NCBI GenBank assembly: GCA_965226055.1
Contig: CBDDCA010000003.1
Coordinates: 19,954 to 83,953, forward strand
DNA: 64,000 bases
Origin: Spirochaetia bacterium
Lineage (GTDB): Bacteria > Spirochaetota > Spirochaetia > WTKD01 > G963693115
Reading direction: 5' to 3'
A program made the translations under genes and the position numbers. Under the pieces are notes generated by a model, which worked only from the letters and a program-made list of their open reading frames with translations, searched no databases and was not told the origin of the DNA. Shown here piece by piece: positions 42 through 28,295 of the stretch (positions within the stretch are counted from its first letter, which is position 1; each line of letters opens with the position of its first letter).

Positions 42-2888
42 ATGGCAATGCAATTTGAAAAACAACGGTATCAAGATCAATGTGTTGATAATATTATTAC
101 AGTATTAAAAGAGTGTGATGTATATCAAAATAATTTTGACAATATGTCTAAAGCAATAGATACCCGTTTTAAAAAAAGTATGAGAAACCGTTTAGATGTA
201 TTGATGGAAACAGGTACAGGCAAGACATTTACGTACTTAAAAGCTATTTTTGAAATACATAAACATTTTAATAAAAATAAGTTTGTTATTATTGTTCCTC
301 GAAGAGCTATTAAACTTGGTGTTATTCAAAATATTGAACTTACAAAATATTATTTCTTTCAAGAATATGGAAAGTACTTATCGTACATTAACTATCCAGA
401 AGAAGGACTGGGAAAGATTGAACATGATTTTTTGAAAACGGATGATCTCACTATTTTGATTACTACTCATAGTGCCTTTAACTCTGATAAAAATAAAATT
501 AATCAAAGCACTGAAAGACTGTTTGAACATGGTTCTGTATGGCAAGGCATTAGAGAAAAACAACCGATTATCATTATTGATGAGCCACATCTTCTGAAAG
601 GGAGCAAGACACAAAAAGGCTTGGAAACATTAAACGATTCTCTGCAAATTCGTTTTGGTGCTACATTTCCTAAAGATACAAAAGATGAAGAACAACACCT
701 AAGCAATGTGGTATATGCTTTGGATAGCATATCGGCTTTTAATCAATACTTAGTAAAAAGAATTGCAGTAGATACAATTATTTCTGATAGTGAGCAAAGT
801 GAATTAAAGGTTACTGATACCAATAAAAAATCTTTTACTGTAATGTATGCTAAAAACTCAATTATATTTAAGGAAACTATTTTTATTGGGGATGATATTG
901 GAGCAAAAACAGGGATAAAAAAATATAATACTATTTCTGCTACAAAGATTAACAAAGGGAAAGTGTTTTTAAGTGATAAGTCCACTTTAGATATGAGTAC
1001 AAGCTACGATGTAACTGATATAGAAATTCGTCATATGGTGAAAAAGACTATTGAAAATCATTTTGAAAAAGAAGAGAAATTTTTTGAGAAAGGAATAAAA
1101 ACACTCTCACTCTTTTTTATTCCCAAGATTAAAGATTTTAGAGACAGTGACAATAAAAGTCCAAGAATAAAAAAGATATTTGAGCAAGAGTACAGAAAGC
1201 AGAGGGAAGTTATTTTTCGAGATACAAAAAATAAAATGTATAAACAATATCTATCGAAAGATATTTCGGAAGATGGCATGCTACAGGTACATGAGGGCTA
1301 TTTTTCGGGAGATAAAGGAAAAACGAAGGAGGACAGGGAAGCTGATGGGGTGAATATGATATTAAATGAAAAAGAAAAATTGCTTTCATTTGATACTCCA
1401 TTACGTTTTATTTTTTCCGTATGGGCTTTGCAAGAAGGGTGGGATAATCCCAATATTTTTACTATTTGTAAATTATCTTCTACCAGCAAAGATACCAGTA
1501 GGAGACAGCAAGTGGGGAGAGGCTTACGCATTGCAGTCAATCAAAAAGGGCATCGTTTTACCCATTTGTTTCTAAATGAAGACAAAGATGCATTTCATGA
1601 AATAAATACGCTGGACATAGTGGTGTCAGGAAAAGAAAAAGATTTTATAGAAGGAATTCAAAACGAGATTCAAGAAGCAAGTTTTTCTTTGGTAGGTGAT
1701 ACCATTACTTTAGAAAAATTAGAACAGTTAGGCTTTAATGATACAGAACGATGCTTTTTGTTTACAATATTGCTACAGAATGGTGTTATTGATCCTCAAA
1801 GAAAGATACGATCATCGTTATATGAGTTTTTGAAACATAACAAAGATAATCTCAAAGATAAACTTGCCGTTCTAGGTATATCTGAAACACGCTATCAAGA
1901 AATGCTAGATAAGTTTACAGAAAACACCTATCCTGTCACTGATAAAAACAAACTTCCTCAAGCAGTAAACATTAAACCAAAACAATGGGAGAGCTTCAAA
2001 GTACTATGGGAAACAATCAATAAAAAAGCAACCATCGTGTACAAAGACATTGAAGAGGAAAGCATTATAGAGCAAGTAGCAGAGTTGTTTAATAAAGAGT
2101 CTATAGAACCCGTGTCAATAAAAATACATAAAGCAATATATAACACTCAAAAAGATAAAATTGAATCTATACAAGAAGAAAGGCTTGAAGAGGTGAGTTT
2201 TTTTAAAGTACAAACGTATAGCGATTTTATCTCCTATTTTATGAAAGATGAAAAACTACCACTGCATTTTTTACTAAAGCTGTTCAATAAAATTGATATA
2301 CAGAAAATAAAGTGTGATCCTCAAAAAGCAAAAGAACATCTTTTACGTATCTTAAAAGAAACTATTCATACAAGTATTATCAATCAGGTATCGTATAATT
2401 TTAATGAAACAACTATTTATCCTAATAAATTGCAAGATAAAAAAGGAAATGCAATACAAAACATTAACTCCACACTACTTGGAAAATATCATACTTTAGA
2501 AGCAGAGCCAGAACATTTATTATATGATACTATTTGCTATGATTCAGATATAGAAAAAGAGCTTCAAAAAGAACCTTCCAACGTAAATAAACAAACAATA
2601 ACAGTTTTTGCAAAACTGCCTCGTATTTCTATTCCAACTCCGTATAAAAACTATAATCCTGATTTTGCCTATTTGATAGAAACAAAAGATTGCAAAAAAT
2701 TATTTTTGGTAGTGGAAACAAAAGGATATAAAAGAGAGGGCGATATTCCTATAGAAGAGCAGAATAAAATAGCATATGCTAAGAAATTTTTTGAGATCTT
2801 ACAGCAACAATTACCTGATATTGACATACAATACAAAACTCGTATTAGCACACAAAGTTTAAGCGATATTATAGAAAATAAACAATGA
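42..2888 (+). CDS. res: Type III restriction-modification endonuclease/helicase subunit (Res)
   Basis: 948-aa ORF. SF2 helicase motifs are METGTGKT (motif I), IIIDEPH (DEAH-like motif II), QEGWDNPN and QQVGRGLR (motif VI). A C-terminal PD-(D/E)xK-like signature is present (NPDF...VVETKGYK). A Mod-type methyltransferase lies downstream on the same strand. Confidence 0.85.
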   Translation: MAMQFEKQRYQDQCVDNIITVLKECDVYQNNFDNMSKAIDTRFKKSMRNRLDVLMETGTGKTFTYLKAIFEIHKHFNKNKFVIIVPRRAIKLGVIQNIELTKYYFFQEYGKYLSYINYPEEGLGKIEHDFLKTDDLTILITTHSAFNSDKNKINQSTERLFEHGSVWQGIREKQPIIIIDEPHLLKGSKTQKGLETLNDSLQIRFGATFPKDTKDEEQHLSNVVYALDSISAFNQYLVKRIAVDTIISDSEQSELKVTDTNKKSFTVMYAKNSIIFKETIFIGDDIGAKTGIKKYNTISATKINKGKVFLSDKSTLDMSTSYDVTDIEIRHMVKKTIENHFEKEEKFFEKGIKTLSLFFIPKIKDFRDSDNKSPRIKKIFEQEYRKQREVIFRDTKNKMYKQYLSKDISEDGMLQVHEGYFSGDKGKTKEDREADGVNMILNEKEKLLSFDTPLRFIFSVWALQEGWDNPNIFTICKLSSTSKDTSRRQQVGRGLRIAVNQKGHRFTHLFLNEDKDAFHEINTLDIVVSGKEKDFIEGIQNEIQEASFSLVGDTITLEKLEQLGFNDTERCFLFTILLQNGVIDPQRKIRSSLYEFLKHNKDNLKDKLAVLGISETRYQEMLDKFTENTYPVTDKNKLPQAVNIKPKQWESFKVLWETINKKATIVYKDIEEESIIEQVAELFNKESIEPVSIKIHKAIYNTQKDKIESIQEERLEEVSFFKVQTYSDFISYFMKDEKLPLHFLLKLFNKIDIQKIKCDPQKAKEHLLRILKETIHTSIINQVSYNFNETTIYPNKLQDKKGNAIQNINSTLLGKYHTLEAEPEHLLYDTICYDSDIEKELQKEPSNVNKQTITVFAKLPRISIPTPYKNYNPDFAYLIETKDCKKLFLVVETKGYKREGDIPIEEQNKIAYAKKFFEILQQQLPDIDIQYKTRISTQSLSDIIENKQ

Positions 2889-3958
2889 GAGAGACTATCC
2901 CTTTTACACCACAGCCTTTACCTCCTGACAATGTAGAGACTATTACAGCCCTAAAGCAAGCAACTAAGGCTCACCAAGCCTTAGCCGAGCTGAAAGGAAC
3001 TGCACATATTATTCCCAATGAAACTATTTTAATTGAAACGCTGATATTAAGAGAAGCAAAAGAGAGCAGTGCTATTGAAAATATCATTACAACACAGGAT
3101 GATCTCTACAAAGCAAAGTTATTTGATGAGTATAAAAATTTCTCTACAAAAGAAGTAGAAAACTATGTGCAAGGGATATTATTTGGATTTAATGTTGTAC
3201 GAGAAAAAGAAGTGCTTACTAATGCTACTATTATGGATATTCAAGAAATATTATTACAGAATACTGCAGGATTTAGAACGCAAGTAGGCACAACACTTAA
3301 GGACAATAATGGAAAAGTAGTATATACTCCACCACAAGACAAAGATAGTATCTTACATTTAATGAATAATTTAGCAGAATTTATCAATAACAATAATTTT
3401 TCTAATATAGACCCTTTAATAAAAATGGCAATAATACATTATCAATTTGAAAGCATACATCCTTTTTATGATGGAAATGGGAGAGTAGGAAGAATTATCA
3501 ATATTTTATATCTTGTATTGCAAAGGTTGTTAGATGTTCCTATTTTGTATTTAAGTAATTACATCATTGAGAATAAAGTGCAGTATTACACGGTGTTACA
3601 AGGCGTAAGAGAGAAAAACGATTGGGAAAGTATGATTTTATACCTACTTACAGGCATTGAAGTTACTGCTATTGAAACTATTGGAGTGATTAAAGAAATA
3701 GACAGATTAATGAAAAAATATAAGCAAGAAATACGGGAAAAATTACCTAAAATGTACTCCCAAGATATGATAAATAGCTTATTCAAGCATCCGTATACAA
3801 AAATAGATTTTTTTGCAAATGATTTGAATATTAGTTATCAGACTGCTCGTAAATACTTAAATAAAATTGATACAATAGGCTTATTGATAAAATTAAAAAT
3901 GGGAAAAAGCAATTATTATTTTAACTCAGAATTGATTGAGGTTTTGCGATGGAAATGA
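2885..3958 (+). CDS. fic: Fic family protein (class II-like, putative AMPylase) with Fic_N-type N-terminus and C-terminal wHTH-like tail
   Basis: 357-aa ORF. The canonical Fic motif HPFYDGNGRVGR (HxFx[D/E]GNGRxxR) is intact. An N-terminal inhibitory-helix motif SSAIEN ([S/T]xxxE[G/N]) is present. The start ATG overlaps the res stop codon (ATGA at 2885-2888). Confidence 0.85.
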   Translation: MRETIPFTPQPLPPDNVETITALKQATKAHQALAELKGTAHIIPNETILIETLILREAKESSAIENIITTQDDLYKAKLFDEYKNFSTKEVENYVQGILFGFNVVREKEVLTNATIMDIQEILLQNTAGFRTQVGTTLKDNNGKVVYTPPQDKDSILHLMNNLAEFINNNNFSNIDPLIKMAIIHYQFESIHPFYDGNGRVGRIINILYLVLQRLLDVPILYLSNYIIENKVQYYTVLQGVREKNDWESMILYLLTGIEVTAIETIGVIKEIDRLMKKYKQEIREKLPKMYSQDMINSLFKHPYTKIDFFANDLNISYQTARKYLNKIDTIGLLIKLKMGKSNYYFNSELIEVLRWK

Positions 3959-3964
3959 TACTAT

Positions 3965-4046
3965 ATTATACGAAAAAGGCATTTTGTATAAACGAAAGGA
4001 ATAACATTATACGAAAACGGCATTTTGTATAAACGAAAGTGATAAT
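3965..4046. repeat. 41-bp tandem repeat array, 2 units (array 1)
   Basis: Units are 3965-4005 and 4006-4046, consensus ATTATAC(A/G)AAAACGGCATTTTGTATAAACGAAAGTGATAAC. The consensus core is TATACAAAA-N6-TTTTGTATA; in both units of this array the left arm reads TATACGAAA, so the inverted repeat is imperfect here. Confidence 0.9.
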
Positions 4047-4177
4047 ATGTATGTAAATAAAAGAGAGGATAGACAAGTTATAGCGTATCCTGTGAAGAAA
4101 CTGTCTTATAGTATTGTAAAGACATTTATTAAGCGGGAGGATCATATAAACATTTTTGCTGATATTAGAAGGAAAGC

Positions 4178-4564
4178 ATGAAAGATAAGATAATAGAACC
4201 AATAGAAAATAAACCTGATGAATTTGATACATTTATAGCAAAAGCTGTAAATAAACAAGAGATACATAACCCTATAGAAAAGATTGATAAATCATTAGAA
4301 ATAATAAGTAATTCTGAAAAAGACTTTATTGTTTATGCAAGTGATGATGGAAATATAAATGTAAGGGTATTGATAGATAAAGAAAATGAGACTATATGGC
4401 TTAATCAAAAACAATTAGCGACTTTATTCGATGTTACTCCTCAAAATATTACTACTCATTTAAGAAATATTTTTGAAACTCAAGAACTAGAGGAAATTTC
4501 AACTTGTAAAGAAATTTTACAAGTTCAAATAGAGGGTAAAAGTACAATTTTCATCCTGAATTGA
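4178..4564 (+). pseudogene. Truncated RhuM-family (virulence protein RhuM-like) N-terminal fragment
   Basis: 128-aa ORF. The segment NINVRVLIDKENETIWLNQKQLATLFDVTPQNITTHLRNIFETQELEE matches my recollection of the conserved RhuM N-terminal region. Full-length members are about 300+ aa. The ORF ends where a duplicated copy of the fic 3' end (from 4558) is joined out of frame. Confidence 0.55.
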
Positions 4565-4594
4565 TTGAGATTTTGCGATGGAAATGATACTATA

Positions 4595-4758
4595 ATTATA
4601 CAAAAACAGCATTTTGTATAAATGAAAGCAATAACATTATACGAAAACGGCATTTTGTATAAACGAAAGTGATAACATTATACAAAAACGGCATTTTGTA
4701 TAAACGAAAGTGATAACATTATACAAAAACGGCATTTTGTATAAACGAAAGTGATAAT
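4595..4758. repeat. 41-bp tandem repeat array, 4 units (array 2)
   Basis: Units are 4595-4635, 4636-4676, 4677-4717 and 4718-4758, the same consensus as array 1. The array lies immediately upstream of the mod start and its AGAGAGG ribosome-binding region. Confidence 0.9.
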
Positions 4759-4787
4759 ATGTATGTAAATAAAAGAGAGGATAAGCA

Positions 4788-6670
4788 ATGATAGATAAAA
4801 CACAAGCACAGCATCATGGAATAAACACCATAGACAGCACACATACAAAAAGTACACACAAAAACGAAACAATAGAGAAGCTAAAAAAACTCATTCCAGA
4901 GATAGTAAGTTCTGATGGACAGCTAAACACAGAAGCGCTGAAAGATGTTATAGATATTTCACATACTACTGCCAACAACAAAGGCTATGAGCTTACCTTT
5001 GCGGGCAAAGGCATTGCGAAAGCAAAAGCAAGCAGTGAGACGAAGTATGAGTTACAAGTAGAACATAAGCAAAGCAAACAATTTGATACTACAGGAAACG
5101 TGGTAATACGTGGTGATAATATAGAAGTGTTGAAAATACTCAAACAAAACTACTTTGGGAAAATAAAAATGATATATATTGATCCACCATATAATACAGG
5201 GAATGATGATTTTATTTATAACAATAATTTCAAAAAAAATGAAGAGGAACTGATTGAGAATTTTGGCTTAGATGAAAATACTACCAACTTTTTACACAAT
5301 GTATATGGAACAAAAAGCCATAGTGGATGGCTTGCCTTTATGTACCCACGCTTAAAACTTGCAAGAGAATTACTTACAGAGGATGGTGTTATTGTTATAG
5401 CAATAGATCATTATGAATTAAATAATCTCACTTGTATTGCAGATGAAATTTTTGGCGAAGAAAATAGGTTGGGATTAGTTAGTGTTGTACATAAAGCAGA
5501 AGGAAGAAATCAAGCAAAATTCTTTGCACCAAGTAATGAATTTATGCTTTTTTATGCTAAAAATGAAAAAAAATGTAATTTCAATACTGTAGCCATAGAT
5601 CATAAAGTAGTTGAAACTTTTGATAAAGAAGATAAGTATGGAAAATATAGACTAAATAATTATCTAAGAACGGGAGGTGGTGATACTGATTTGCGAATAA
5701 ATAAACCAGAGTTTTTTTATCCTATTTATGTAAGTGAGAATTTACAAATTATAAGTTTGGATAAAATAGAAGGATATTATGAGGTATTACCAGTTACAAA
5801 CGGAAAGCAAGAGAGAACATGGAAAACAAAAAAGAAACTTTTTACCAAAATATGTTAGCAGGAAACATTATAGTAAAAAAAGAAAATGATAAAATTCAAA
5901 TTTATGAAAAGTACAGAGAACAACAGATATTAAAAACATATTGGCATCAGACAAAATATCATGCTATCCATCACGGAACAAATAGAATACTCAAATTATT
6001 AGGCAAAAAATGTTTTGATTTTCCAAAATCAGTGTATTTAGTTCAAGATATCTTAAAAATTGTCACCAATTTTAACGATCTCATCCTAGATTTTTTCGCA
6101 GGCTCTGGTACTACAGGCGATGCGGTAATGCAACTTAATGCTGACGATGGCGGTAATAGAAAATTTATTTTAGTACAGTGGGATGAAAAGATAGACAAAA
6201 AGAAAAATAGCGAATCCTATACATTTTGTACGGAAAATAACTTTAAGCCTGTCATCTCCAGCATTACCATAGAACGCTTACATCGTGCAGGAGAAAAAAT
6301 AAAAGCAGAGAAAAAAGCAGATGCATTGGATATAGGCTATAGAGTGTTTTCTCTTACCCCTAAACCGCAGCTTATTGAAGATGAAAATACAGTATTCCAA
6401 TTAGAACATGCCCGTACAGGCACGATACATACACTTGTAAATATGCTATGTGCTACAGGTAAGCCTCTGCACAGTACTATCGAAGAGAAAGAAAAAGACA
6501 TCCTATATAGTGTCGATGATACGATATTTGTACTAGGTAATATAAGCACTAACATAGTAGAGGATATGAAAGATAAAATGATTTATATTGATGGATATAG
6601 TGACATATCTTTAGAGTATTGGCTAAACTTAAATATATCAAATAGAGATAATATAAAGATAGTGTATTAG
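4788..6670 (+). pseudogene. mod: Type III R-M DNA methyltransferase (Mod, beta-class N6-adenine/N4-cytosine MTase) interrupted by a frameshift
   Basis: Two overlapping ORFs, 4788..5858 and 5819..6670. Motif IV IYIDPPYNTG is in the first and motif I FFAGSGTTGDAV is in the second, which is the IV-TRD-I order typical of Mod. Adding one A to the A6 tract at 5828-5833 gives one continuous 627-aa reading frame (...ERTWKTKKETFYQNML...). Confidence 0.8.
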
Positions 6671-6689
6671 AATGTAACAAGGAGTTAGC

Positions 6690-8357
6690 GTGAAAATTTA
6701 TGTTGAAACAAGCAACAGACCTTTTAGTGAAATAATAGGTAATAGTAAGCGATACATTGTGCCAAAATATCAACGTAACTACTCTTGGGATTATGAACAA
6801 TTAGAAGATTTATGGGATGATTTAGAAGCTATATATAATAATGCTAATGACAAAGAGCGTGAGGAACACTATATGGGATACTTAGTGTTAAAAGAAATTC
6901 AAAAAAATAATAAATTTGAGATTATTGATGGTCAACAGCGAATTACAACACTAACACTATTAGTACTGGCTATATTACAAATTTTAAAAAAACAAAATGA
7001 ACAAAGCCGTTTAGATAATATCCGAGAAAATTTCATCATATATAAAAGAATGGACGATCTTGTTGAAGAATATAAACTTGAACTTAATAAAAATAACGAT
7101 AAATATTATAAAGATAAATTAGTCTCATTAACCGAGAATCCAAAAAACCGAAATTTAATAGCTTCAAATAACTTATTAAGAGAAGCCAAAAAATTTTTTC
7201 AAAAAAAATTAGAAGAAAAAAATTTATCTCCACAGCAATTAGGAGAGTTTTTAAGTGTTGTATTTAATGGGTTACTATTTACCGTTATGACTATTGATGA
7301 TGATGTAAATGCATATAAGATTTTTGAAACCTTAAATGCGAGAGGGGTAGAGTTATCTATACCAGACTTATTGAAAAATTATCTTTTTTCTGTAGCTGAT
7401 GAACATTCAGAAAATTTGATTGATGATTTTGAAGATAAATGGCATGATATTATCGTATCTTTAGGAGATTCTGATTTTACTAAGTTCATAAGAGTACAAT
7501 GGAATAGTTTATATAAATTTAGTACAAAAGCAGATCTTTTTAAAACTATAAGAAATGAAATTAAAGAACCAGAAGATGCAAAAAATTATATTATAGCCAT
7601 ACATAAAGATATGGATGTGTATGTATCATTACAGAATTATAAGGATGATATGTGGAAAGAATATACTGAGGAAGTGAAGGAATGTATACATATGCTCAAG
7701 ATATTTAGTATTGTGCAGCCTCTGGGGGCTTTGCTGAGAGCCTTTAAAATATATCCTAAAAAAGATTTTGAAAAATTTTGTAAATATGTATTAGCATTTT
7801 GTATGCGATATAATGTTATTTGTAATTTACCACCCAATCAGCTAGAGCCGTTTTATAGTAAGCTATCTCACAGCATATCAAAAAAGCCATCGCTAAACGA
7901 TATTAAAATGAAATTTAAAAAATCATATGTTGATGATGAGCGATTTAAAAAAAGTTTTGCTTATAAAAGTATGGTAGAACCCAAAAAAGCCATATATATC
8001 CTTTCTTCTTTAGAAAACCATATAAATAAAAGCAATAGAATACACTCTGAAGATTATACACTAGAGCATATATTACCAAAAAAAGAACCTACAGATGATA
8101 CTTATTGGAGTGAACAGTTTAGGAATTCAAAGCAACAAGATATTGAGAAATTAGGAAATTTTACTCTCTTACGAAAGAAAGACAATGAAAAAGCAAGCAA
8201 TGGTTCTTTTGATGAAAAAAAGGAAATTTATAAAAAAAATACATTAAAAATTTTACAAAAGATTTGTGAGTATAAAGATTGGAATCATAAGAGTATTTTA
8301 GACTATCAGCATTGGCTAGCAGACATAGCGGTAGAAAAATGGAATATTCAATTTTAG
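6690..8357 (+). CDS. DUF262/DUF1524 protein (GmrSD-like, putative Type IV restriction / defence nuclease)
   Basis: 555-aa ORF with a GTG start 6 nt after AAGGAG. The N-terminal DUF262 signatures are VPKYQRNYSW and IDGQQRITTL. The C-terminal His-Me/HNH-like DUF1524 signature is LEHILPK...GNFTLLRKKDNEKASN. It starts 19 nt downstream of mod. Confidence 0.8.
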   Translation: MKIYVETSNRPFSEIIGNSKRYIVPKYQRNYSWDYEQLEDLWDDLEAIYNNANDKEREEHYMGYLVLKEIQKNNKFEIIDGQQRITTLTLLVLAILQILKKQNEQSRLDNIRENFIIYKRMDDLVEEYKLELNKNNDKYYKDKLVSLTENPKNRNLIASNNLLREAKKFFQKKLEEKNLSPQQLGEFLSVVFNGLLFTVMTIDDDVNAYKIFETLNARGVELSIPDLLKNYLFSVADEHSENLIDDFEDKWHDIIVSLGDSDFTKFIRVQWNSLYKFSTKADLFKTIRNEIKEPEDAKNYIIAIHKDMDVYVSLQNYKDDMWKEYTEEVKECIHMLKIFSIVQPLGALLRAFKIYPKKDFEKFCKYVLAFCMRYNVICNLPPNQLEPFYSKLSHSISKKPSLNDIKMKFKKSYVDDERFKKSFAYKSMVEPKKAIYILSSLENHINKSNRIHSEDYTLEHILPKKEPTDDTYWSEQFRNSKQQDIEKLGNFTLLRKKDNEKASNGSFDEKKEIYKKNTLKILQKICEYKDWNHKSILDYQHWLADIAVEKWNIQF

Positions 8358-8526
8358 TGTAATTACAATACTACCTCTCTGTATTTCTCCTTTTGTACGC
8401 CTCTACATCCATAATAGTAATTGACTATTATACGAACAAAAAAGTATATATACATATATCATCTAAAAAACCATTGCAATTTCCATCTCAAATTGATTGA
8501 AATTTTGCTATGAAAGTGATATTATT

Positions 8527-8597
8527 ACTATGTAGAAATAGCATTTTGTATAAACGAAAGCAGTAACATGATACAAAAATGGCATTTTGTATAAATG
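8527..8597. repeat. 41-bp repeat array, about 1.7 degenerate units (array 3)
   Basis: ...GTAGAAATAGCATTTTGTATAAACGAAAGCAGTAAC followed by ATGATACAAAAATGGCATTTTGTATAAATG. The array is preceded (8491-8519) by a decayed copy of the fic 3' end. Confidence 0.7.
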
Positions 8598-8619
8598 TAC
8601 AGAGGAGTTGCTAGGAATT

Positions 8620-10803
8620 ATGATTAACAAAATAACGATAAATAATATAGCAAGCTATAAAGAAGAAACTTTTTTAGAGACTAAAAAGAAAGTAAATCTT
8701 ATTTATGGACTAAATGGTACAGGCAAAACAATTTTATCCAGTTATTTACAGGATATGGAAAATGATAAATATAAAGATTGTGGGATTGAAGGATTTGATG
8801 CAAACAAGCAAAAGATATTAGTATATAACCAAAAATTTGTAGATGATAAGTTTGATGGCAATGAAACACAAAGAGGAATTTTTACCTTAGATAAAGATAA
8901 TAAGGAAGCACTATCAAATATAGACAAAGCAACACAACAAAAGAAAATTTTGGAAAGCAAGTTACAGGAGGAAGGAAATGCTTTAAGTGATCAGAAAGCA
9001 CAAATAGACGAGAATCATAGTACAGCAATAGAAAATATTTGGGAAATAAAGAAAGAATATGAACATGGTGTATTTGATTTCTGTTTAGAAGGATATAAGA
9101 GGAAAGATAAATTATTTGAATATTTGCTGAGTAGGAATCTAGAAGAATCAACTAAAAGTATTAAAAGTATAGAAGAAGAGTTGTTAGAATTAGGAGAAGG
9201 AGCGAATCCAAGAGAAGAATTAAAAGAAATTACCTATGACAGTAATATAGAAAGTAATCAGATTTTTCAAGAAGGAATTATAGGTAATGAAAATAGTGCT
9301 GTTTCTAATCTAATAAAAGAATTAAAAAATGCTGATTGGGTTAGAAAAGGTTTGGGTTATGTCAATTTAAAAGAAAGGGAGAATTGCCCTTTTTGTCAAG
9401 AGAAGACTATGACTAAAGAATTGGTAAGTGAGATTGAAAGCTATTTTGATAAGACATATGAAGAAAAGATTACTCAAATAAAAAAATTAAAAACCGAATA
9501 CCAAAATTTTAGGGATAATCTAAATTTAGATAGTTATAAAAGAAATTTTTTCAAAGACTATCAGAATTTAGAAATTGAAAAATTATTTAATAGTGTAACT
9601 AAAATTTTAGATGATAATTTGGAAAAGATTAAGAAAAAAATAAGTCAGCCAAGCCAGATAGTAGAATTAGAATCAAGTAAAGAAGCAATACAGAAGGTAA
9701 ATCAAATAATCCAAAATAAAAATAAAGAGATTGAAGCATTTAATACGAAATTAACAAATAGAGAGCAGACAATTCAAGAATTAAAAGAAGATTTTTGGAA
9801 AATTCAAAGAAAAAAATACGACAGAGATATTTCTAACTATAATAATAAGAAACGAACATTACAAAAAGAGCAAGATAATATAAACAAAGAAATTGAAGAT
9901 ATAAGCAAACAAATTAAGGAACAAAATAGAATTATTAAGGAGAATCAAAGAAAAACAACCAGTATAGAAACTGTAATTGACAAAATTAATGTTCATTTAT
10001 CAGATTTTGGAATAAAAAATTTTAAGATTGTAAAGAATGATGAAAAAACTTATAAAATTGAAAGAACAGGAGAAGATGAAATTAATAAAATTGAGAGAAC
10101 GGGAGAAGATGAAAATAAATTTAAATCACTAAGTGAAGGAGAAAAAACCGTTATCAGCTTTTTGTATTTTGTAGAGTTATGTATTGGAAAAGAAAATACA
10201 GAAGACATTAAAGAAAAAATTGTTGTAATTGATGACCCTATGTCAAGTTTATCCCATATGTATGTCTTCAATGTAGCACAGCTTATTAAAACACATTTTA
10301 CAAAAAACAGTGACAAAAAGAGCGAGGTTAAACAATGTTTTATTTTGACGCATAGTCTATATTTTTTCTATGAACTAATGGATAAAAAAAAGAAGGAGGA
10401 AGAAGAAAAACAAGGGTTATTTAGAATTACCAAATCAGATAGCAGTAAGATTGAAGAAATGAAACGTAATGAAATCCAAAATGAATATGATTCTTACTGG
10501 GATATAGTGAAAACAGCAAATGAAGCAAATAGATTTATAGTAGCTAATGCTATGAGAAATATCATAGAGCATTTTTTTTGTTTCGTTGATAAAGAAGAAA
10601 GTATAAATAATATTTTTCAGAAAGAAGAATTTAAAGGCGATGAATATCAATCTTTTAGAAGATACATAGAGAGAGAATCACACTCCGATAGAACAAATTT
10701 TAGTGACAGCAAAGAAATTAATATAGAATTTTTTAAGAAAGCATTTAGGAAGGTTTTTGAAGAGGCAGATTATAAAGAACATTATGACAAATACATTAAA
10801 TGA
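8620..10803 (+). CDS. AAA_13-type ABC/Rad50-like ATPase, RloC/PrrC-like candidate anticodon nuclease
   Basis: Walker A is GLNGTGKT. A roughly 450-aa charged coiled-coil-like insert contains CPFC (CxxC). The ABC signature is LSEGEK and Walker B is IVVIDDPMSSLS. The C-terminal MRNIIEHFF...ESHSDR gives an R-x3-E...H arrangement. The track ORF starts at TTG 8587 inside repeat array 3. ATG 8620 (MINKITINN...) with upstream GAGGAG is the more plausible start. Confidence 0.7.
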   Translation: MINKITINNIASYKEETFLETKKKVNLIYGLNGTGKTILSSYLQDMENDKYKDCGIEGFDANKQKILVYNQKFVDDKFDGNETQRGIFTLDKDNKEALSNIDKATQQKKILESKLQEEGNALSDQKAQIDENHSTAIENIWEIKKEYEHGVFDFCLEGYKRKDKLFEYLLSRNLEESTKSIKSIEEELLELGEGANPREELKEITYDSNIESNQIFQEGIIGNENSAVSNLIKELKNADWVRKGLGYVNLKERENCPFCQEKTMTKELVSEIESYFDKTYEEKITQIKKLKTEYQNFRDNLNLDSYKRNFFKDYQNLEIEKLFNSVTKILDDNLEKIKKKISQPSQIVELESSKEAIQKVNQIIQNKNKEIEAFNTKLTNREQTIQELKEDFWKIQRKKYDRDISNYNNKKRTLQKEQDNINKEIEDISKQIKEQNRIIKENQRKTTSIETVIDKINVHLSDFGIKNFKIVKNDEKTYKIERTGEDEINKIERTGEDENKFKSLSEGEKTVISFLYFVELCIGKENTEDIKEKIVVIDDPMSSLSHMYVFNVAQLIKTHFTKNSDKKSEVKQCFILTHSLYFFYELMDKKKKEEEEKQGLFRITKSDSSKIEEMKRNEIQNEYDSYWDIVKTANEANRFIVANAMRNIIEHFFCFVDKEESINNIFQKEEFKGDEYQSFRRYIERESHSDRTNFSDSKEINIEFFKKAFRKVFEEADYKEHYDKYIK

Positions 10804-21983: not shown

Positions 21984-24900
21984 ATGAAATTATTGAATAT
22001 ATCATATATATTTTTTATCGTTTTTGTGTTTTCACTTTTCACTTGTGAAAATGACAATGTAGGAAGCGGAGGAAGTAACAACGCTATTGATTTAAGTAGT
22101 GTGGCATCTCCCCCGCTAGATGTAACGAATATTACTAACAGTATTGTGAATGGTAATATTGTGTTAAAGTGGCAAGTTCCAGCCCTTACTACTAATCTTA
22201 AAAGGAAAGATGGCAAAACACTCACAAAGGCAGATATATCTTACAAAGTGTATCGAGTAGTAAAGGGAGCAAAGAGCCGAACAATAGCCCAGATTAAAAC
22301 AGTGGATAAAAAACCGATAACAGTAGCAAAGGGAACAACAAGTACAACTATAAGTAATCTTACTGGAAATACAACATACGAGATAGTAGTGCAGGCAGTA
22401 AATTCTACAGATACCACAAAAGTCTCTACAGGAGTGAGAGCAGAAGTTACTACTTTATCCTCTGCAACTGCTCCCGCAGAAGTAAGCACTATTACTGCAG
22501 GCAGTACAACGGCTAGCAGTACAGTTATATCATGGACAGCCCCAACGCTTGATACTAGCCACAAGAAAGCAGACGGCACAGCACTGACAAAGGCAGATGT
22601 GTCTTACAAAGTGTATCGAGTAGCAAAGGGAAGCGATGAGCGAACAGTAGCACAAATAAAATCAGCAGACACAAGCCCGCTAGCAGTAGCAAAGGGAACA
22701 ACAAGTACAACTATAAGTAACCTTACAGGCAGTACAACATACGAGATAGTAGTGCAGGCAGTCAATTCTACTGATGCCACAAAAGCCTCTATAGGCAAGA
22801 GAATAGAAGTTACTACTACTGTTATAATAAATCAAGCCACCGCACCCGCAGAGGCAAGCACTATTACTGCAGGCAGTACAACAGCTAGCAGTACAGTTAT
22901 ATCATGGACAGCTCCAACGCTTGATACTAGCCACAAGAAAGCAGACGGCACAGCACTGATAAAGGCAGATGTATCTTACAAAGTGTATCGAGTAGCAAAA
23001 GGAAGCGATGAGCGAACAGTGGCACAGATTAAGACAGCAGATACAAGCCCGCTAGCAGTAGCAAAGGGAACAACAAGTACAACTATAAGTAACCTTACAG
23101 GGAATACAACATACGAGATAGTAGTGCAGGCAGTAAATTCTACTGATACCACAAAAGCCTCTATAGGCAAGAGAATAGAAGTTACTACCACGAACCCTGC
23201 AACTGCCCCCGCAGAAGTAAGTGCTATTACTGCAGGCAGTACAACGGCTAGCAGTACAACGCTATCATGGACAGCCCCCACGCTTGATACTAGTCACAAG
23301 AAGGCAGACGGCACAGCACTGACAAAGGCAGATGTGTCTTACAAAGTGTATCGAGTAGCAAAAGGAAGCGATGAGCGAACAGTAGCACAGATTAAGACAG
23401 CAGACACAAGCCCGCTAGCAGTAACAAAGGGAACTATAAGCAAAACTATAAATAACCTTACAGGCAGTACAACATACGAGATAGTAGTGCAGGCAGTCAA
23501 TTCTACCGATATCACAAAAGCCTCTACAGGCAAGAGAATAGAAGTTACTACTCTAAACCCCGCAAATGCCCCAACAGAAGTAAGCACTATTACTGCAAGC
23601 AGTACAACAGCTAGCAGTACAGTTATATCATGGACAGCTCCAACGCTTACTACTAGCCATAAGAAAGCGGACGGGGGAAGGCTTACAACGGCAGATGTAT
23701 CTTACAAAATATATCGAGTAGCAAAGGGAAGCAAAGCCCGAACAGTAGCAGAGATTAAGAGAGTAGACCCGACTCCACTAAAAGTAACAAAGGGAACAAC
23801 CCGTATAACTATAACAAACCTTAATTATAATACCGCCTATGAAATAGTAGTACAAGCAGTCAATTCTACTGATACTACAAAAGTCTCTACAGGAATACGA
23901 AAAGAAGTTACTACTAATCGTATACCTAATATAGCCACCGCCCCAACAGAAGTAACCAATATCACCGCAGGCAGTACAACGGCTAGCAGTACAGTTATAT
24001 CATGGACAGCCCCCACCCTAACAAACAGTCACAAGAAAGCAAACGGACAAAATCTTACAACGGCAGATGTATCTTACAAAATATATCGGGTAGCGAAGGG
24101 AAGCGATGAGCGAACAGTAGCCCAGATTAAAACAGCAGACACGACTCCGATCGCAGTAGCAAAGGGAACAACAAGAACAACTATAAGTAACCTTACAGGA
24201 AGTACAATATACGAGATAGTAGTGCAGGCAGTCAATTCTACCGATACCACAAAAGTCTCTACAGGAGTGAGAGCAGAAGTTACTACTCTAAACCCCGCAA
24301 ATGCTCCCGCAGAAGTAAGCAATGTTACTGCTGGAAGTACTACCGATAAAAGAATAGAAGTAACATGGCAAGCACCAACGCTTACTAATGATCACAAGAA
24401 GGCAAACGGAGAAACACTAACAACGGCAGATGTATTTTATAAAGTGTATCGAGTAGCAAAAGGAAGCGATGAGCGAACAGTAGCAGAGATTAAAACAGCA
24501 GACACAAGCCCGTTAGAAGTAGCACGGGGAATAACTACTGTATTTATACCCAACCTTACAGGCAGTACAACATACGAGATAGTAGTGCAGGCAGTCAATT
24601 CTACCGATACCACAAAAGCCTCTACAGGAGTGAGAGCAGAAGTTACTACTACTAACCCTGCAAATGCTCCCGCTGAAGTAAGCAATATTACTGTAGGCAG
24701 TACAACGGCTAGCAGTACAACGCTTTCATGGACAGCCCCCACGCTTGATAATAGCCACAAAAAAGCAAACGGAGAAACACTTACAACGGCAGATGTGTCT
24801 TATAAAGTGTATCGTGTTGCAAAAGGAAAGAATGCCCGAGATGTAGCAGAGATTAAGACAGCGGATAAAAGCCCGTTAGCAGTAGCAAAGGGAACTATAA

Positions 24901-27900
24901 GCAAAACTATAAATAACCTTGCAGGCAGTACAACTTATGAGATAGTAGTACAAGCAGTCAATTCTACTGATACCACAAAAGCCTCTACAGGAGTGAGAGC
25001 AGAAGTTACTACTTTATCCTCTGCAACAGCCCCCGCAGAAGTAAGCAATGTTAGTGCAGGAAGCACAACTGCTAGCAGTACAGTTATATCATGGACAGCC
25101 CCCACGCTTGATAATAGCCATAAAAAAGCAGACGGTACAGCACTGACAAAGGCAGATGTGTCTTACAAAGTGTATCGAGTAGCAAAGGGAAGCGATGAGC
25201 GAACAGTAGCAGAGATTAAGACAGCGGATAAAAGCCCGCTAGCAGTAACAAAAGGAACTATAAGCAAAACTATAAATAACCTTACAGGCAGTACAACATA
25301 CGAGATAGTAGTGCAGGCAGTCAATTCTACCGATACCACAAAAGTCTCTACAGGCAAGAGAATAGAAGTAACAACCTCAAACCCCGCAAATGCCCCCGCA
25401 GAAGTAAGCAATGTTAGTGCAGGAAGCACAACTGCTAGCAGTACAGTTATATCATGGACAGCCCCAACGCTTGATACTAGCCACAAGAAAGCAGATGGCA
25501 CAGCACTGACAAAGGCAGATGTGTCTTACAAAGTGTATCGAGTAGCAAAGGGAAGCGATGAGCGAACAGTAGCAGAGATTAAGACAGCGGATAAAAGCCC
25601 GCTAGCAGTAACAAAAGGAACTATAAGCAAAACTATAAGTAACCTTACAGGCAGTACAACATACGAGATAGTAGTGCAGGCAGTCAATTCCACCGATACC
25701 ACAAAAGTCTCTACAGGAGTGAGAGCAGAAGTTACTACTTTATCCTCTGCAACTGCTCCCGCAGAAGTAAGCAATGTTAGTGCAGGAAGCACAACTGCTA
25801 GCAGTACAGTTATATCATGGACAGCACCAACGCTTGATACTAGCCATAAGAAAGCAGACGGCACAGCACTAACAAAGGCAGATGTGTCTTACAAAGTGTA
25901 TCGAGTAGCAAAAGGAAAGAATGCCCGAGATGTAGCAGAAATTAAGACAGCGGATAAAAGCCCGTTAGCAGTAACAAAGGGAACTATAAGCAAAACTATA
26001 AGTAACCTTACAGGCAGTACAACATACGAGATAGTAGTGCAGGCAGTCAATTCTACCGATACCACAAAAGCCTCTACAGGCAAGAGAATAGAAGTTACTA
26101 CTCTAAACCCCGCAAATGCCCCCGCAGAAGTAAGCAATGTTAGTGCAGGAAGCACAACTGCTAGCAGTACAGTTATATCATGGACAGCCCCCACGCTTGA
26201 TAATAGCCATAAAAAAGCAGACGGTACAGCACTGACAAAGGCAGATGTGTCTTACAAAGTGTATCGAGTAGCAAAGGGAAGCGATGAGCGAACAGTAGCA
26301 GAGATTAAGACAGCGGATAAAAGCCCGCTAGCAGTAACAAAAGGAACTATAAGCAAAACTATAAATAACCTTACAGGCAGTACAACATACGAGATAGTAG
26401 TACAAGCAGTAAATTCTACTGATACCACAAAAGTCTCTACAGGAGTGAGAGCAGAAGTTACTACTTTATCCTCTGCAACTGCTCCCGCAGAAGTAAGCAA
26501 TGTTAGTGCAGGAAGCACAACTGCTAGCAGTACAACAATATCATGGACAGCCCCAACGCTTGATAATAGCCACAAGAAAGCAGACGGCACAGCACTAACA
26601 AAGGCAGATGTGTCTTACAAAGTGTATCGAGTAGCAAAAGGAAAGAATGCCCGAGATGTAGCAGAGATTAAGACAGCAGATAAAAGCCCGTTAGCAGTAA
26701 CAAAAGGAACTATAAGCAAAACTATAAGTAACCTTACAGGCAGTACAACATACGAGATAGTAGTACAGGCAGTCAATTCTACCGATACCACAAAAGCCTC
26801 TACAGGCAAGAGAATAGAAGTTACTACTACCAACCCCGCAAATGCTCCCGCAGAAGTAAGCAATATTACTGCAGGCAATCTTATTGCAGGCACTCCCTAC
26901 AGCACTGGTATTACTATATCATGGACAGCCCCAACGCTTGATAATAGCCACAAGAAAGCAGATGGCACAGCACTGACAACGGCAGATGTATCTTACAAAG
27001 TGTATCGAGTGGCAGAAAGATGGAATAACCCCCGAACAGTAGCACAGATTAAAACAGCAGACACAAGCCCGCTAGAAGTAACACAGAATACAACAAGTAT
27101 AAATATAACTAATCTTGTTTTGTACGAAACATACGAGATAGTAGTGCAGGCAGTCAATTCTACCGATACCACAAAAATCTCTACAGGAATAAAGAAAAAC
27201 ATTACTCTCAATAGTAACGCCACTGATCCCGCAGAAGTAAACAATGTTACAGGAACTCCCGCTGATAAATCTGCAAGAATATCGTGGGAAGCTCCAACAC
27301 TCAAAAGCAGTCACAAAAAATCAGACGGAACACAACTAACAACGGCAGAGGTATCGTATAAGGTATATGCAGCGAGAAGGAAAAGAGATGAGTACGGAGT
27401 TTATTACAAAGAACGCACAGTAGCACAAATTATAGCAGGTGGTCACCCAATTAGTTTACCCGCAGGAACTACAAGTACGAATATTAATACTATTGCAAAA
27501 GATATAGTTTTTATACCTAAAAATAAATACGAGATAGTAGTGCAAGCAGTAAATGTCACCGATACGTCAAAAGTCTCTACAGGAGTAAGAATAGAAATAA
27601 CTACCATTTCTACTAATCACGCCACCGCCCCGCCAGACCCCCGCAGTGTTTTAAGCTATGCAGCAAAGCCATCTAATAGAGCAGTAACAATATCATGGAT
27701 AACTTCAACGCTTACTAATAATCATAAGAAACCAGACGGCACGAAATTAGCGAAAACAGATATAGATTACTATGTATATCATTTAGAAAAGGCCAGCATT
27801 TCTAAAACAGTAGAACAAATTAAAAACAGAAAGCCAATCCCTATACTAGTACTCAATGGAGCTACAAATGTAGTTATTTCTAATCTTAAGCCCAATACTA

Positions 27901-28295
27901 CCTATGAGGTAGTAGTGCAGGCAGTCAACTCTATTGATACAAGAAAAAAATCTACAGGCATACGAATAGAAGTTACTACTTTAGTAACGCTTAATGAATT
28001 AGTATTTAAGGTAAAGGGAAATAAAGTTACTTATGAATGGGTACATTACCCTGAAACTGCAAATATTGAAATAGAACAAACGCCATACGCAACAGGTAAA
28101 TATTCAATAAGTCCCAACCTCACAGCAGACACTGGACTGTCCTTTGATACAAAAACAGGCAGGATATACGGACAACCCACGAAATCGCTTAAAACCTTCA
28201 ATGCTCGTAAATACTACACAGTAAAATTTACTGCAAACGATGGACGAATAGCACGGGGTACAATTCTCTTAAAAGTAACAAGAAATAACTACTAA
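21984..28295 (+). CDS. Giant surface lipoprotein with 16 tandem FN3-like domains and a C-terminal Ig-like (He_PIG-type) domain
   Basis: 2103-aa ORF. AGGAGG SD, signal peptide and lipobox (FSLFTC). The roughly 121-aa units have an FN3-like pattern (...SWTAP...Y.VYRV...L...[11 protein letters not shown]...). The C-terminal SPNLTADTGLSFDTKTGRIYGQP pattern is typical of putative Ig domains. Confidence 0.8.
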   Translation: MKLLNISYIFFIVFVFSLFTCENDNVGSGGSNNAIDLSSVASPPLDVTNITNSIVNGNIVLKWQVPALTTNLKRKDGKTLTKADISYKVYRVVKGAKSRTIAQIKTVDKKPITVAKGTTSTTISNLTGNTTYEIVVQAVNSTDTTKVSTGVRAEVTTLSSATAPAEVSTITAGSTTASSTVISWTAPTLDTSHKKADGTALTKADVSYKVYRVAKGSDERTVAQIKSADTSPLAVAKGTTSTTISNLTGSTTYEIVVQAVNSTDATKASIGKRIEVTTTVIINQATAPAEASTITAGSTTASSTVISWTAPTLDTSHKKADGTALIKADVSYKVYRVAKGSDERTVAQIKTADTSPLAVAKGTTSTTISNLTGNTTYEIVVQAVNSTDTTKASIGKRIEVTTTNPATAPAEVSAITAGSTTASSTTLSWTAPTLDTSHKKADGTALTKADVSYKVYRVAKGSDERTVAQIKTADTSPLAVTKGTISKTINNLTGSTTYEIVVQAVNSTDITKASTGKRIEVTTLNPANAPTEVSTITASSTTASSTVISWTAPTLTTSHKKADGGRLTTADVSYKIYRVAKGSKARTVAEIKRVDPTPLKVTKGTTRITITNLNYNTAYEIVVQAVNSTDTTKVSTGIRKEVTTNRIPNIATAPTEVTNITAGSTTASSTVISWTAPTLTNSHKKANGQNLTTADVSYKIYRVAKGSDERTVAQIKTADTTPIAVAKGTTRTTISNLTGSTIYEIVVQAVNSTDTTKVSTGVRAEVTTLNPANAPAEVSNVTAGSTTDKRIEVTWQAPTLTNDHKKANGETLTTADVFYKVYRVAKGSDERTVAEIKTADTSPLEVARGITTVFIPNLTGSTTYEIVVQAVNSTDTTKASTGVRAEVTTTNPANAPAEVSNITVGSTTASSTTLSWTAPTLDNSHKKANGETLTTADVSYKVYRVAKGKNARDVAEIKTADKSPLAVAKGTISKTINNLAGSTTYEIVVQAVNSTDTTKASTGVRAEVTTLSSATAPAEVSNVSAGSTTASSTVISWTAPTLDNSHKKADGTALTKADVSYKVYRVAKGSDERTVAEIKTADKSPLAVTKGTISKTINNLTGSTTYEIVVQAVNSTDTTKVSTGKRIEVTTSNPANAPAEVSNVSAGSTTASSTVISWTAPTLDTSHKKADGTALTKADVSYKVYRVAKGSDERTVAEIKTADKSPLAVTKGTISKTISNLTGSTTYEIVVQAVNSTDTTKVSTGVRAEVTTLSSATAPAEVSNVSAGSTTASSTVISWTAPTLDTSHKKADGTALTKADVSYKVYRVAKGKNARDVAEIKTADKSPLAVTKGTISKTISNLTGSTTYEIVVQAVNSTDTTKASTGKRIEVTTLNPANAPAEVSNVSAGSTTASSTVISWTAPTLDNSHKKADGTALTKADVSYKVYRVAKGSDERTVAEIKTADKSPLAVTKGTISKTINNLTGSTTYEIVVQAVNSTDTTKVSTGVRAEVTTLSSATAPAEVSNVSAGSTTASSTTISWTAPTLDNSHKKADGTALTKADVSYKVYRVAKGKNARDVAEIKTADKSPLAVTKGTISKTISNLTGSTTYEIVVQAVNSTDTTKASTGKRIEVTTTNPANAPAEVSNITAGNLIAGTPYSTGITISWTAPTLDNSHKKADGTALTTADVSYKVYRVAERWNNPRTVAQIKTADTSPLEVTQNTTSINITNLVLYETYEIVVQAVNSTDTTKISTGIKKNITLNSNATDPAEVNNVTGTPADKSARISWEAPTLKSSHKKSDGTQLTTAEVSYKVYAARRKRDEYGVYYKERTVAQIIAGGHPISLPAGTTSTNINTIAKDIVFIPKNKYEIVVQAVNVTDTSKVSTGVRIEITTISTNHATAPPDPRSVLSYAAKPSNRAVTISWITSTLTNNHKKPDGTKLAKTDIDYYVYHLEKASISKTVEQIKNRKPIPILVLNGATNVVISNLKPNTTYEVVVQAVNSIDTRKKSTGIRIEVTTLVTLNELVFKVKGNKVTYEWVHYPETANIEIEQTPYATGKYSISPNLTADTGLSFDTKTGRIYGQPTKSLKTFNARKYYTVKFTANDGRIARGTILLKVTRNNY
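22095..27985 (+). repeat. Tandem 363-bp coding repeats (16 units)
   Basis: The period is visible in both protein and DNA. The central units (about 24960-26830) share stretches of more than 200 nt of perfect identity, for example 25098-25315 versus 26187-26404. Confidence 0.9.

Follow-up and report, generated by a model that had tools for sequence, protein, structure and literature searches.

Fic/Doc proteins are classical toxins. Among Fic proteins, SoFic has been described as a stand-alone defence protein that is widespread in genomes and validated as a single-gene anti-phage system (bioRxiv 10.1101/2022.05.11.491447). The Escherichia coli protein EcSofic is toxic, requires dimerisation, is countered by a small downstream gene, AS1, and protects against phage T5 (PMC12249575). 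A recent preprint reports that SoFic AMPylates EF-Tu, blocks translation, and binds DNA upstream of its own gene in a dimer-dependent manner (bioRxiv 10.64898/2026.07.09.737422). Only for the proteins of E. coli and Shewanella are phage protection, EF-Tu AMPylation, and dimer-dependent activity known (PMC12249575; bioRxiv 10.64898/2026.07.09.737422). CccR of Yersinia pseudotuberculosis, which joins a Fic domain to a winged helix-turn-helix (wHTH), represses its own promoter via inverted repeats and has recognition helices about 70 Å apart (PMC9755527); in Coxiella CbFic2, DNA binding gates AMPylation (PMC10628234). Defence genes nested within Hma, BREX, DISARM, and Type I restriction-modification (R-M) operons have been systematically surveyed (bioRxiv 10.1101/2024.01.29.577857), and Fic and RhuM genes have been listed between Type I core genes (PMC9881135). 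Here we describe a SoFic-family gene, fic, that overlaps a Type III restriction gene, res, in a 64,000-nucleotide stretch of a Spirochaetia genome (contig CBDDCA010000003.1, positions 19,954 to 83,953; hereafter the window). The linkage of fic to Type III genes is conserved in related genomes, and fic is adjoined by tandem palindromic arrays of a kind that accompanies SoFic genes across the family.

The fic gene (2885–3958, forward strand) encodes a class II Fic AMPylase of 357 amino acids with an N-terminal inhibitory helix, a Fic core, and a C-terminal wHTH. Pfam places Fic_N at residues 23–102, Fic at 111–210, and the DNA-binding wHTH domain SoFic-like_C (PF21248) at 275–350 (nt 3707–3934; E 6.6e-21, whole model covered). 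The combination of Fic_N helix, Fic core, and wHTH is that of SoFic/MloA of Shewanella oneidensis and of EcSofic, the "SoFic" of PADLOC and DefenseFinder. The PADLOC SoFic model PDLC03963 matches at E 1.1e-111 (residues 6–354 of 357 against model positions 8–358 of 361), and the solved SoFic structures from E. coli (PDB 9VJC) and Shewanella can be aligned with the protein along its whole length, with E values between 1e-79 and 1e-67. At E<=1e-20 it has over 8000 matches among database proteins. The window gene is no novel kind of gene; it belongs, as an ordinary member, to a defence family that is already known. Its catalytic motif, HPFYDGNGRVGR (nt 3458–3493, residues 192–203), fits the published consensus HxFx(D/E)GNGRxxR, and its inhibitory motif, SSAIEN (nt 3065–3082, residues 61–66, inside the Fic_N match), fits (S/T)xxxE(G/N); both were read in translation. 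Across 20 homologues the catalytic residues H192, F194, D196, G197–R200, G202, and R203 are invariant, as are S61, S62, I64, E65, and N66, with position 63 being A or E. Measured against its closest relative, described below as locus L001, fic has a ratio of nonsynonymous to synonymous substitution rates (dN/dS) of 0.17 and res one of 0.23, and both genes are therefore kept by selection. The conserved motifs and the low dN/dS rule out a relic, so that a preliminary description of this DNA, which had taken the enzyme to be intact and auto-inhibited, was right on this point.

The neighbouring res gene (42–2888, forward strand) is an intact Type III restriction subunit of 948 amino acids. It combines a superfamily 2 helicase (ResIII/DEAD, residues 7–214) with a C-terminal PD-(D/E)xK nuclease (RE_endonuc, residues 825–935), and its DEPH and PD...ExK motifs are readable in translation. 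It matches the PADLOC model REase_III at E 1e-121 and scores 468 bits, under the 564-bit cut-off, with NCBIfam PRK15483. The fic ATG (2885–2887) overlaps the res TGA (2886–2888) in the sequence ATGA, as had been described earlier, and the identical overlap is kept in L001, where Fic is 94% identical. Four-nucleotide ATGA is the commonest overlap in bacterial operons. Read directly, the sequence upstream of the fic ATG holds no Shine-Dalgarno sequence, whereas one is present before res (GAGGAAG), rhuM (GAAGGAAAG), and mod (AGAGAGGA), and a promoter and terminator scan found no terminator between res and fic. For want of a Shine-Dalgarno sequence, reinitiation after res termination is the most plausible route, and Fic is probably made in this way at the ATGA overlap, which is the coupling that the preliminary description had thought compatible with the junction. 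Unlike the published SoFic genes, which stand alone with their own promoter, the window fic lacks a promoter or ribosome-binding site of its own and overlaps the res stop codon.

The same description had placed fic inside a Type III R-M operon and had counted a lack of res-fic adjacency in related genomes towards a refutation of its reading. The first statement holds in part. The gene overlaps res and a Type III methyltransferase gene, mod, lies downstream, but mod begins 830 nt past fic, behind a truncated rhuM gene and repeat arrays, and the order is res-fic-rhuM-mod rather than the canonical mod-res. In addition, mod (4788–6670, forward strand) is split into two open reading frames (ORFs; 4788–5858 and 5819–6670), both matched by PADLOC MTase_III, through a -1 frameshift in a run of six A residues at 5828–5833. 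Its motifs thus fall on separate ORFs (DPPY in the first half, FxGxG in the second), and no intact Mod is encoded as the sequence stands. Adding one A (A7) restores a 627-amino-acid Mod that aligns over residues 1–627 with the Mods of three related loci (L001, L004, and L085). The frameshift may reflect a homopolymer (long-read) assembly error, phase variation, or a dead gene that leaves res-fic an orphan. The frameshift, the res-first order, and the wHTH of Fic with its palindromic arrays before neighbouring genes had all escaped the earlier description.

On the second point, conservation of the linkage is clear, and the description is not refuted there. Six loci share the SSAIEN motif in a subclade with Fic identities of 66–94%. 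The closest relative (L001) lies on an annotated Spirochaetia metagenome-assembled chromosome, OZ244590.1, and carries res-fic with the ATGA overlap, an intact rhuM (385 amino acids), an intact mod (609 amino acids), GmrSD, an HTH/transposase-like gene, AAA_13, and hisD. In both lineages the island occupies one chromosomal site between a peptidase gene and hisD, the window hisD after AAA_13 being assigned by synteny with L001; no mobility genes were found in the window. In L004 the order is mod, an AAA_21 gene, fic, and res, and in L002 and L003 fic is followed by a 203-amino-acid Mod remnant. L086 is the only subclade locus without a nearby R-M gene. In L085 a 110-amino-acid C-terminal Res fragment is followed by fic and mod, with the full res further upstream and a Type II R-M cassette inserted between. 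Identities between the window and L001 are 92% for Res, 66% for Mod, and 94% for Fic; the corresponding values are 60%, 49%, and 68% against L004, 62%, 50%, and 69% against L085, and 71%, 56%, and 76% between L004 and L085. The identities of the three proteins run in parallel across these four closest loci, so the three genes have been passed on as a set, by descent or by transfer. SoFic genes at a greater distance (about 55% identical) stand in unrelated Type III systems, in the order mod-fic-res with a 4-nt overlap in L131 and as fic-res in L154. A metagenome scan for closer relatives of the SSAIEN subclade returned none above 59% identity, and its loci served as extra SoFic contexts. The linkage of fic to Type III genes recurs in L001, L085, and L004, with a Mod remnant in L002, and in the more distant L131 and L154. 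The Type II cassette of L085 (2501–11089 of that locus) comprises a methylase, an NgoFVII-like nuclease, a second methylase, and a 420-amino-acid ORF; it is inserted near the 3' end of res, and the last 110 res codons are duplicated (89% identical), so that the res-fic junction is preserved.

A second feature of the locus is a set of palindromes beside fic. Two 26-nt palindromes of the form TTATACGAAAA-N-TTTTGTATAA, 41 nt apart (3966–4032), begin 8 nt past the fic stop codon and upstream of rhuM. A duplicate of the fic 3' tail (85% identical) with four palindromes at 41-nt spacing (4540–4788; palindromes 4596–4744) lies directly upstream of mod, and a third, degenerate copy of fic tail and palindromes (8465–8595; palindromes at about 8528–8594) lies upstream of the AAA_13 gene. 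In total the window contains seven palindrome matches against none expected. The 3' end of fic also contains a promoter-like element on the forward strand (TTGAGG, 17 nt, TGn-TACTAT; 3936–3964), with copies at 4565–4593 and 8497–8525 (TTGAGR). The element may act as a promoter, and what has spread through the island by copying seems to be a promoter-operator module. In L001, L085, L004, and L002 fic is likewise followed by the 26-nt palindrome at 41-nt spacing, and there, as in the window, the array precedes whichever R-M gene comes next. In the window, L001, and L085 this is mod, in L004 it is res, and in L002 it is the Mod remnant.

Beside these arrays lie copies of a mini-ORF (MYVNKRED...), of 44 amino acids before rhuM (4047–4181) and 10 amino acids before mod (4759–4791), each ending in an ATGA overlap with the start codon of the gene that follows. 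It is probably a leader sequence. The 44-codon copy has no start codon in L001 and the copy before mod is truncated; as the 44-amino-acid ORF is the only small sense ORF after fic and is not conserved, it was rejected as an AS1-like antitoxin.

The arrays are not confined to this clade, and 26 SoFic loci beyond the window, L001, L002, L004, and L085 have them. Tandem Repeats Finder (TRF) identified 33 tandem arrays flanking fic in 31 of 162 SoFic loci, 30 of them with a period of 40–42 nt; 21 start at the fic stop codon and 12 end at the start codon. Array density is 0.225 per kb in the fic flanks but 0.0065 per kb in the rest of these loci, and an array occupies 25 of 159 intergenic gaps flanking fic but only 3 of 647 others (odds ratio 40, p 9e-16). 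A common layout underlies the units, with 5–6 specific bases, an A-run, 4–6 bases, a T-run, and the reverse complement, while the specific bases vary between lineages. Arrays also occur beside SoFic genes that have no R-M neighbours. In the literature searched, no description was found of a 40–42-nt-period array element travelling with SoFic genes, and the element is apparently undescribed. In the EcSofic locus (L167, 5372–6000), the 630-nt gap that separates a small HTH_3 gene from EcSofic, ahead of the latter, is filled by about nine 70-nt repeats in which ATGTCGA motifs and CATCGACAC/GTGTCGATG palindromes occur. AS1, the published antitoxin, is encoded on the opposite side of EcSofic from these repeats.

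What binds the arrays is suggested by published DNA. In the 300-bp Shewanella fragment that SoFic is reported to bind (Table S2 of the preprint), two GTATAGA...TCTATAC palindromes stand 40 nt from each other and three ATGTCGA motifs are spaced by 39–40 nt, two of these motifs in the best-binding fragment, F1; the main text of the preprint mentions neither palindromes nor inverted repeats (bioRxiv 10.64898/2026.07.09.737422). The window fic is adjoined by tandem palindromic sites at roughly the same 40-nt spacing. Moreover, the outer half-sites of the window palindrome are 20 bp (about 68 Å) apart, close to the approximately 70 Å between the recognition helices of CccR (PMC9755527). Because of the like spacing in SoFic-bound Shewanella DNA, and because of the repeat binding and helix distance of CccR, we infer that the arrays are operators for the SoFic wHTH. 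CccR resembles the window protein in joining Fic to a C-terminal HTH, and its dimer binds inverted repeats and represses transcription, with toxic and regulatory activity in one protein. It differs in being a type VI secretion system effector that targets FtsZ, and in its operator, which lies within its own promoter and is a single pair of 10-bp repeats spaced 26 bp, where the window has a multi-copy array of 41-nt period before neighbouring genes. The window arrays also depart from published SoFic in lying downstream of fic, ahead of other defence genes.

A Type III host is a minority arrangement for SoFic. Among 158 SoFic loci, 79 from one genome per species and 79 from metagenomes, Type I or IIG genes lie within two genes of fic in 29 (17 and 12, respectively), and Type III genes in 2 of each set, or 3 when the whole locus is considered (4–5 of 158); about 80% have no R-M neighbour. 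Of 90 same-strand immediate neighbours compared with Pfam, the top families were N6_Mtase (12), HsdM_N (9), ResIII (8), HSDR_N (5), and Methylase_S (4), and neighbouring proteins were extremely diverse overall, with 347 clusters among 400. The ratio of 29 to 4–5 therefore makes SoFic a frequent guest of R-M loci generally, with Type III hosting the minority. A literature search for Fic together with Type III restriction found the arrangement in no paper. The earlier statement that no characterised Type III R-M plus Fic module was known thus agrees with the literature found, but the gene itself is a known SoFic and its embedding in R-M loci had already been described. The arrangement is a variant of a known embedding theme, with a Type III host that is absent from the published survey. 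As in that survey, a toxin-type defence gene sits, with the same orientation, between the genes for the subunits of a system based on DNA modification, and the catalogue items RhuM (PDC-S05), GmrSD (HEC-06), and AAA_13 (PDC-S06) all occur in the window island; the survey took Hma, BREX, DISARM, and Type I R-M as host systems and did not include Type III (bioRxiv 10.1101/2024.01.29.577857).

The explanation that we consider probable is that fic is a SoFic abortive-infection, or translation-arrest, module that is co-transcribed and translationally coupled with res, forms a second line behind Type III restriction, and through its wHTH probably sets the expression of rhuM, mod, and AAA_13. The Type III locus in which fic is embedded, res-fic-(rhuM)-mod, opens a defence island whose further genes are GmrSD and AAA_13. 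In this scheme fic would be transcribed with res and translated by reinitiation at the overlap. On infection SoFic would, by analogy with its characterised relatives, arrest translation by AMPylating EF-Tu in switch I, so that the infection is aborted, and a wHTH dimer would bind the 26-nt palindromes after its own stop codon and before rhuM, mod, and AAA_13, and so control the transcription of these genes. The preliminary description had likewise suggested an abortive-infection role; the SoFic family is known for such activity, but SoFic acts alone in E. coli, where an R-M partner is unneeded. Two of its other suggestions, stoichiometric expression and AMPylation of Res or Mod, draw no support from the present data. 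A further-reaching idea, which we put forward only tentatively, is that SoFic proteins are bifunctional controller-toxins that read palindromes of about 26 nt at 40–42-nt (four helical turns) spacing, and that Type III restriction, RhuM, AAA_13, and the EF-Tu response come together in a single circuit governed by SoFic. AMPylation might even be gated by whether the DNA sites are occupied, just as DNA binding gates it in Coxiella CbFic2 (PMC10628234).

Several observations weigh against the favoured explanation or narrow it. With the NCBIfam SoFic equivalog NF046030 the window Fic scores 334.8 bits, under the 550-bit curated cut-off, and on its sequence it is a member of the SoFic family without being a strict equivalog of the Shewanella protein. 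Since SoFic protects alone in E. coli, the embedding may mean only co-transfer and co-expression, and with mod frameshifted in the window the R-M half may be off, unless the frameshift is a homopolymer assembly error. In a consensus scan, promoter-like hits were overall no commoner than in shuffled sequence. The arrays lie downstream of fic in most array-bearing loci and not in the fic promoter, and no publication shows SoFic at downstream sites; another protein may bind them, or their hairpins may have a role at the level of RNA. G.U-compatible mismatches favour the sense strand (25 against 7 antisense), but 15 of the 25 come from the window clade, where all 15 mismatches are of the sense kind and represent one inherited base, leaving 10 against 7 outside the clade. 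The RNA of the mod-proximal array folds weakly better than shuffles (z -2.7) with no defined centroid, and an Rfam scan of 2800–8700 at E<=1 gave only a chance snoRNA match.

In Type III toxin-antitoxin systems of the ToxIN kind, an endoribonuclease toxin processes tandem repeats of about 36 nt that are transcribed upstream of it. The locus does not fit this model: the toxin is a Fic AMPylase and not an RNase, the arrays can lie on either side of fic, Rfam gives no match, and the sense-strand G.U bias lacks significance once the one clade is set aside.

Other explanations differ in what they make of the R-M neighbours. PrrC, in the Type Ic system EcoprrI, is a toxin embedded between R-M genes and physically coupled to them, and the window shares with it the genetic embedding alone. 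By extension, SoFic could be held latent on the Res/Mod complex and freed when a phage anti-restriction protein disables the enzyme, which is the toxin arm of the preliminary description, released when restriction is subverted. PrrC in Type I loci offers a classical precedent (mentioned in bioRxiv 10.1101/2024.01.29.577857), the start/stop overlap with res would favour co-translational assembly, and in several independent lineages fic has its place between the subunit genes of an R-M system, its divergence keeping pace with theirs. We nevertheless regard such a guard as unlikely, given that SoFic protects and is toxic as a single gene with no R-M partner (bioRxiv 10.1101/2022.05.11.491447; PMC12249575), that four-fifths of SoFic loci lack an R-M neighbour, with none in L086 and only a Mod remnant in L002, and that mod is frameshifted in the window while fic stays under purifying selection. 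The opposite extreme, in which the Type III context means nothing beyond shared transcription and SoFic cassettes land in any defence locus, draws on the excess of Type I/IIG over Type III neighbours and on the diversity of neighbouring proteins. It sits badly with the parallel divergence of Res, Mod, and Fic down to 60% Res identity, with the retention of the res-fic junction in L085 despite the Type II insertion, and with the copies of fic tail and array that now head mod and AAA_13, and it seems to us quite improbable.

The arrays invite comparison with the controller (C) proteins of Type II R-M systems, small dimeric HTH regulators that act on palindromic boxes and set relative R and M expression. 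C proteins have an Xre-type HTH and no enzymatic domains and act on C-boxes upstream of the C and R genes, and nothing comparable is established for Type III systems. SoFic might on this model be chiefly a transcription factor that times or balances the second R-M subunit via the arrays, with AMPylation secondary. In each of the five clade members with R-M genes an array does separate fic from the R-M gene nearest to it on that side, but catalytic and inhibitory motifs needless for a pure regulator are invariant in the clade, and arrays accompany SoFic genes without R-M neighbours as well; there is little to recommend this possibility. It is very unlikely, finally, that fic is an addiction module, a self-inhibited toxin that stabilises the island or a mobile carrier and has no part in phage defence. 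The toxicity of EcSofic and its neutralisation by AS1 (PMC12249575), the classical role of Fic/Doc proteins as toxins, and the recombination scars in the island all speak for it. No AS1-like antitoxin is evident, however, the sole candidate (4047–4181) having no start codon in L001, and the island sits at one chromosomal site in two lineages with no mobility genes in the window.

Few "single-gene" defences are commoner than SoFic, and the locus shows it hard-wired into, and inherited with, a Type III R-M system. The arrays of 40–42-nt period, present also in the only DNA shown to bind SoFic, give a testable handle on SoFic control and on co-regulation of the island. An array element that travels with SoFic, and that in this clade has been copied before neighbouring defence genes, is a more interesting result than the adjacency of res and fic. 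If the arrays are not SoFic sites, what remains is a further instance of a defence gene placed inside an R-M operon, an ordinary finding.

The remainder of the island bears marks of rearrangement. The rhuM gene (PADLOC candidate PDC-S05; 4178–4564, forward strand) retains 128 amino acids of the N-terminal part of the protein that is intact in L001; it breaks off at 4548, from where the sequence continues as a second copy of the final 55 nt of fic and the repeats behind them, and is best read as truncated by recombination between two copies of a module made of the fic 3' tail plus palindromes. Beyond mod lie a GmrSD-type Type IV restriction enzyme (PADLOC HEC-06; 6690–8357, forward strand; Pfam and PADLOC matches) and an AAA_13 ATPase (PADLOC candidate PDC-S06; 8587–10803, forward strand), the last island gene before hisD. 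The centre of mod, its target-recognition region (5466–6073), has no DNA similarity to L001, with flanks 85–89% identical, which suggests an exchange of specificity domains between close strains. Further along the window, two giant ORFs (21984–28295 and 31550–38146; 2103 and 2198 amino acids) with a G+C content of 40–45% against about 31% and an A-over-T skew of 0.3–0.4 probably encode repetitive surface proteins.

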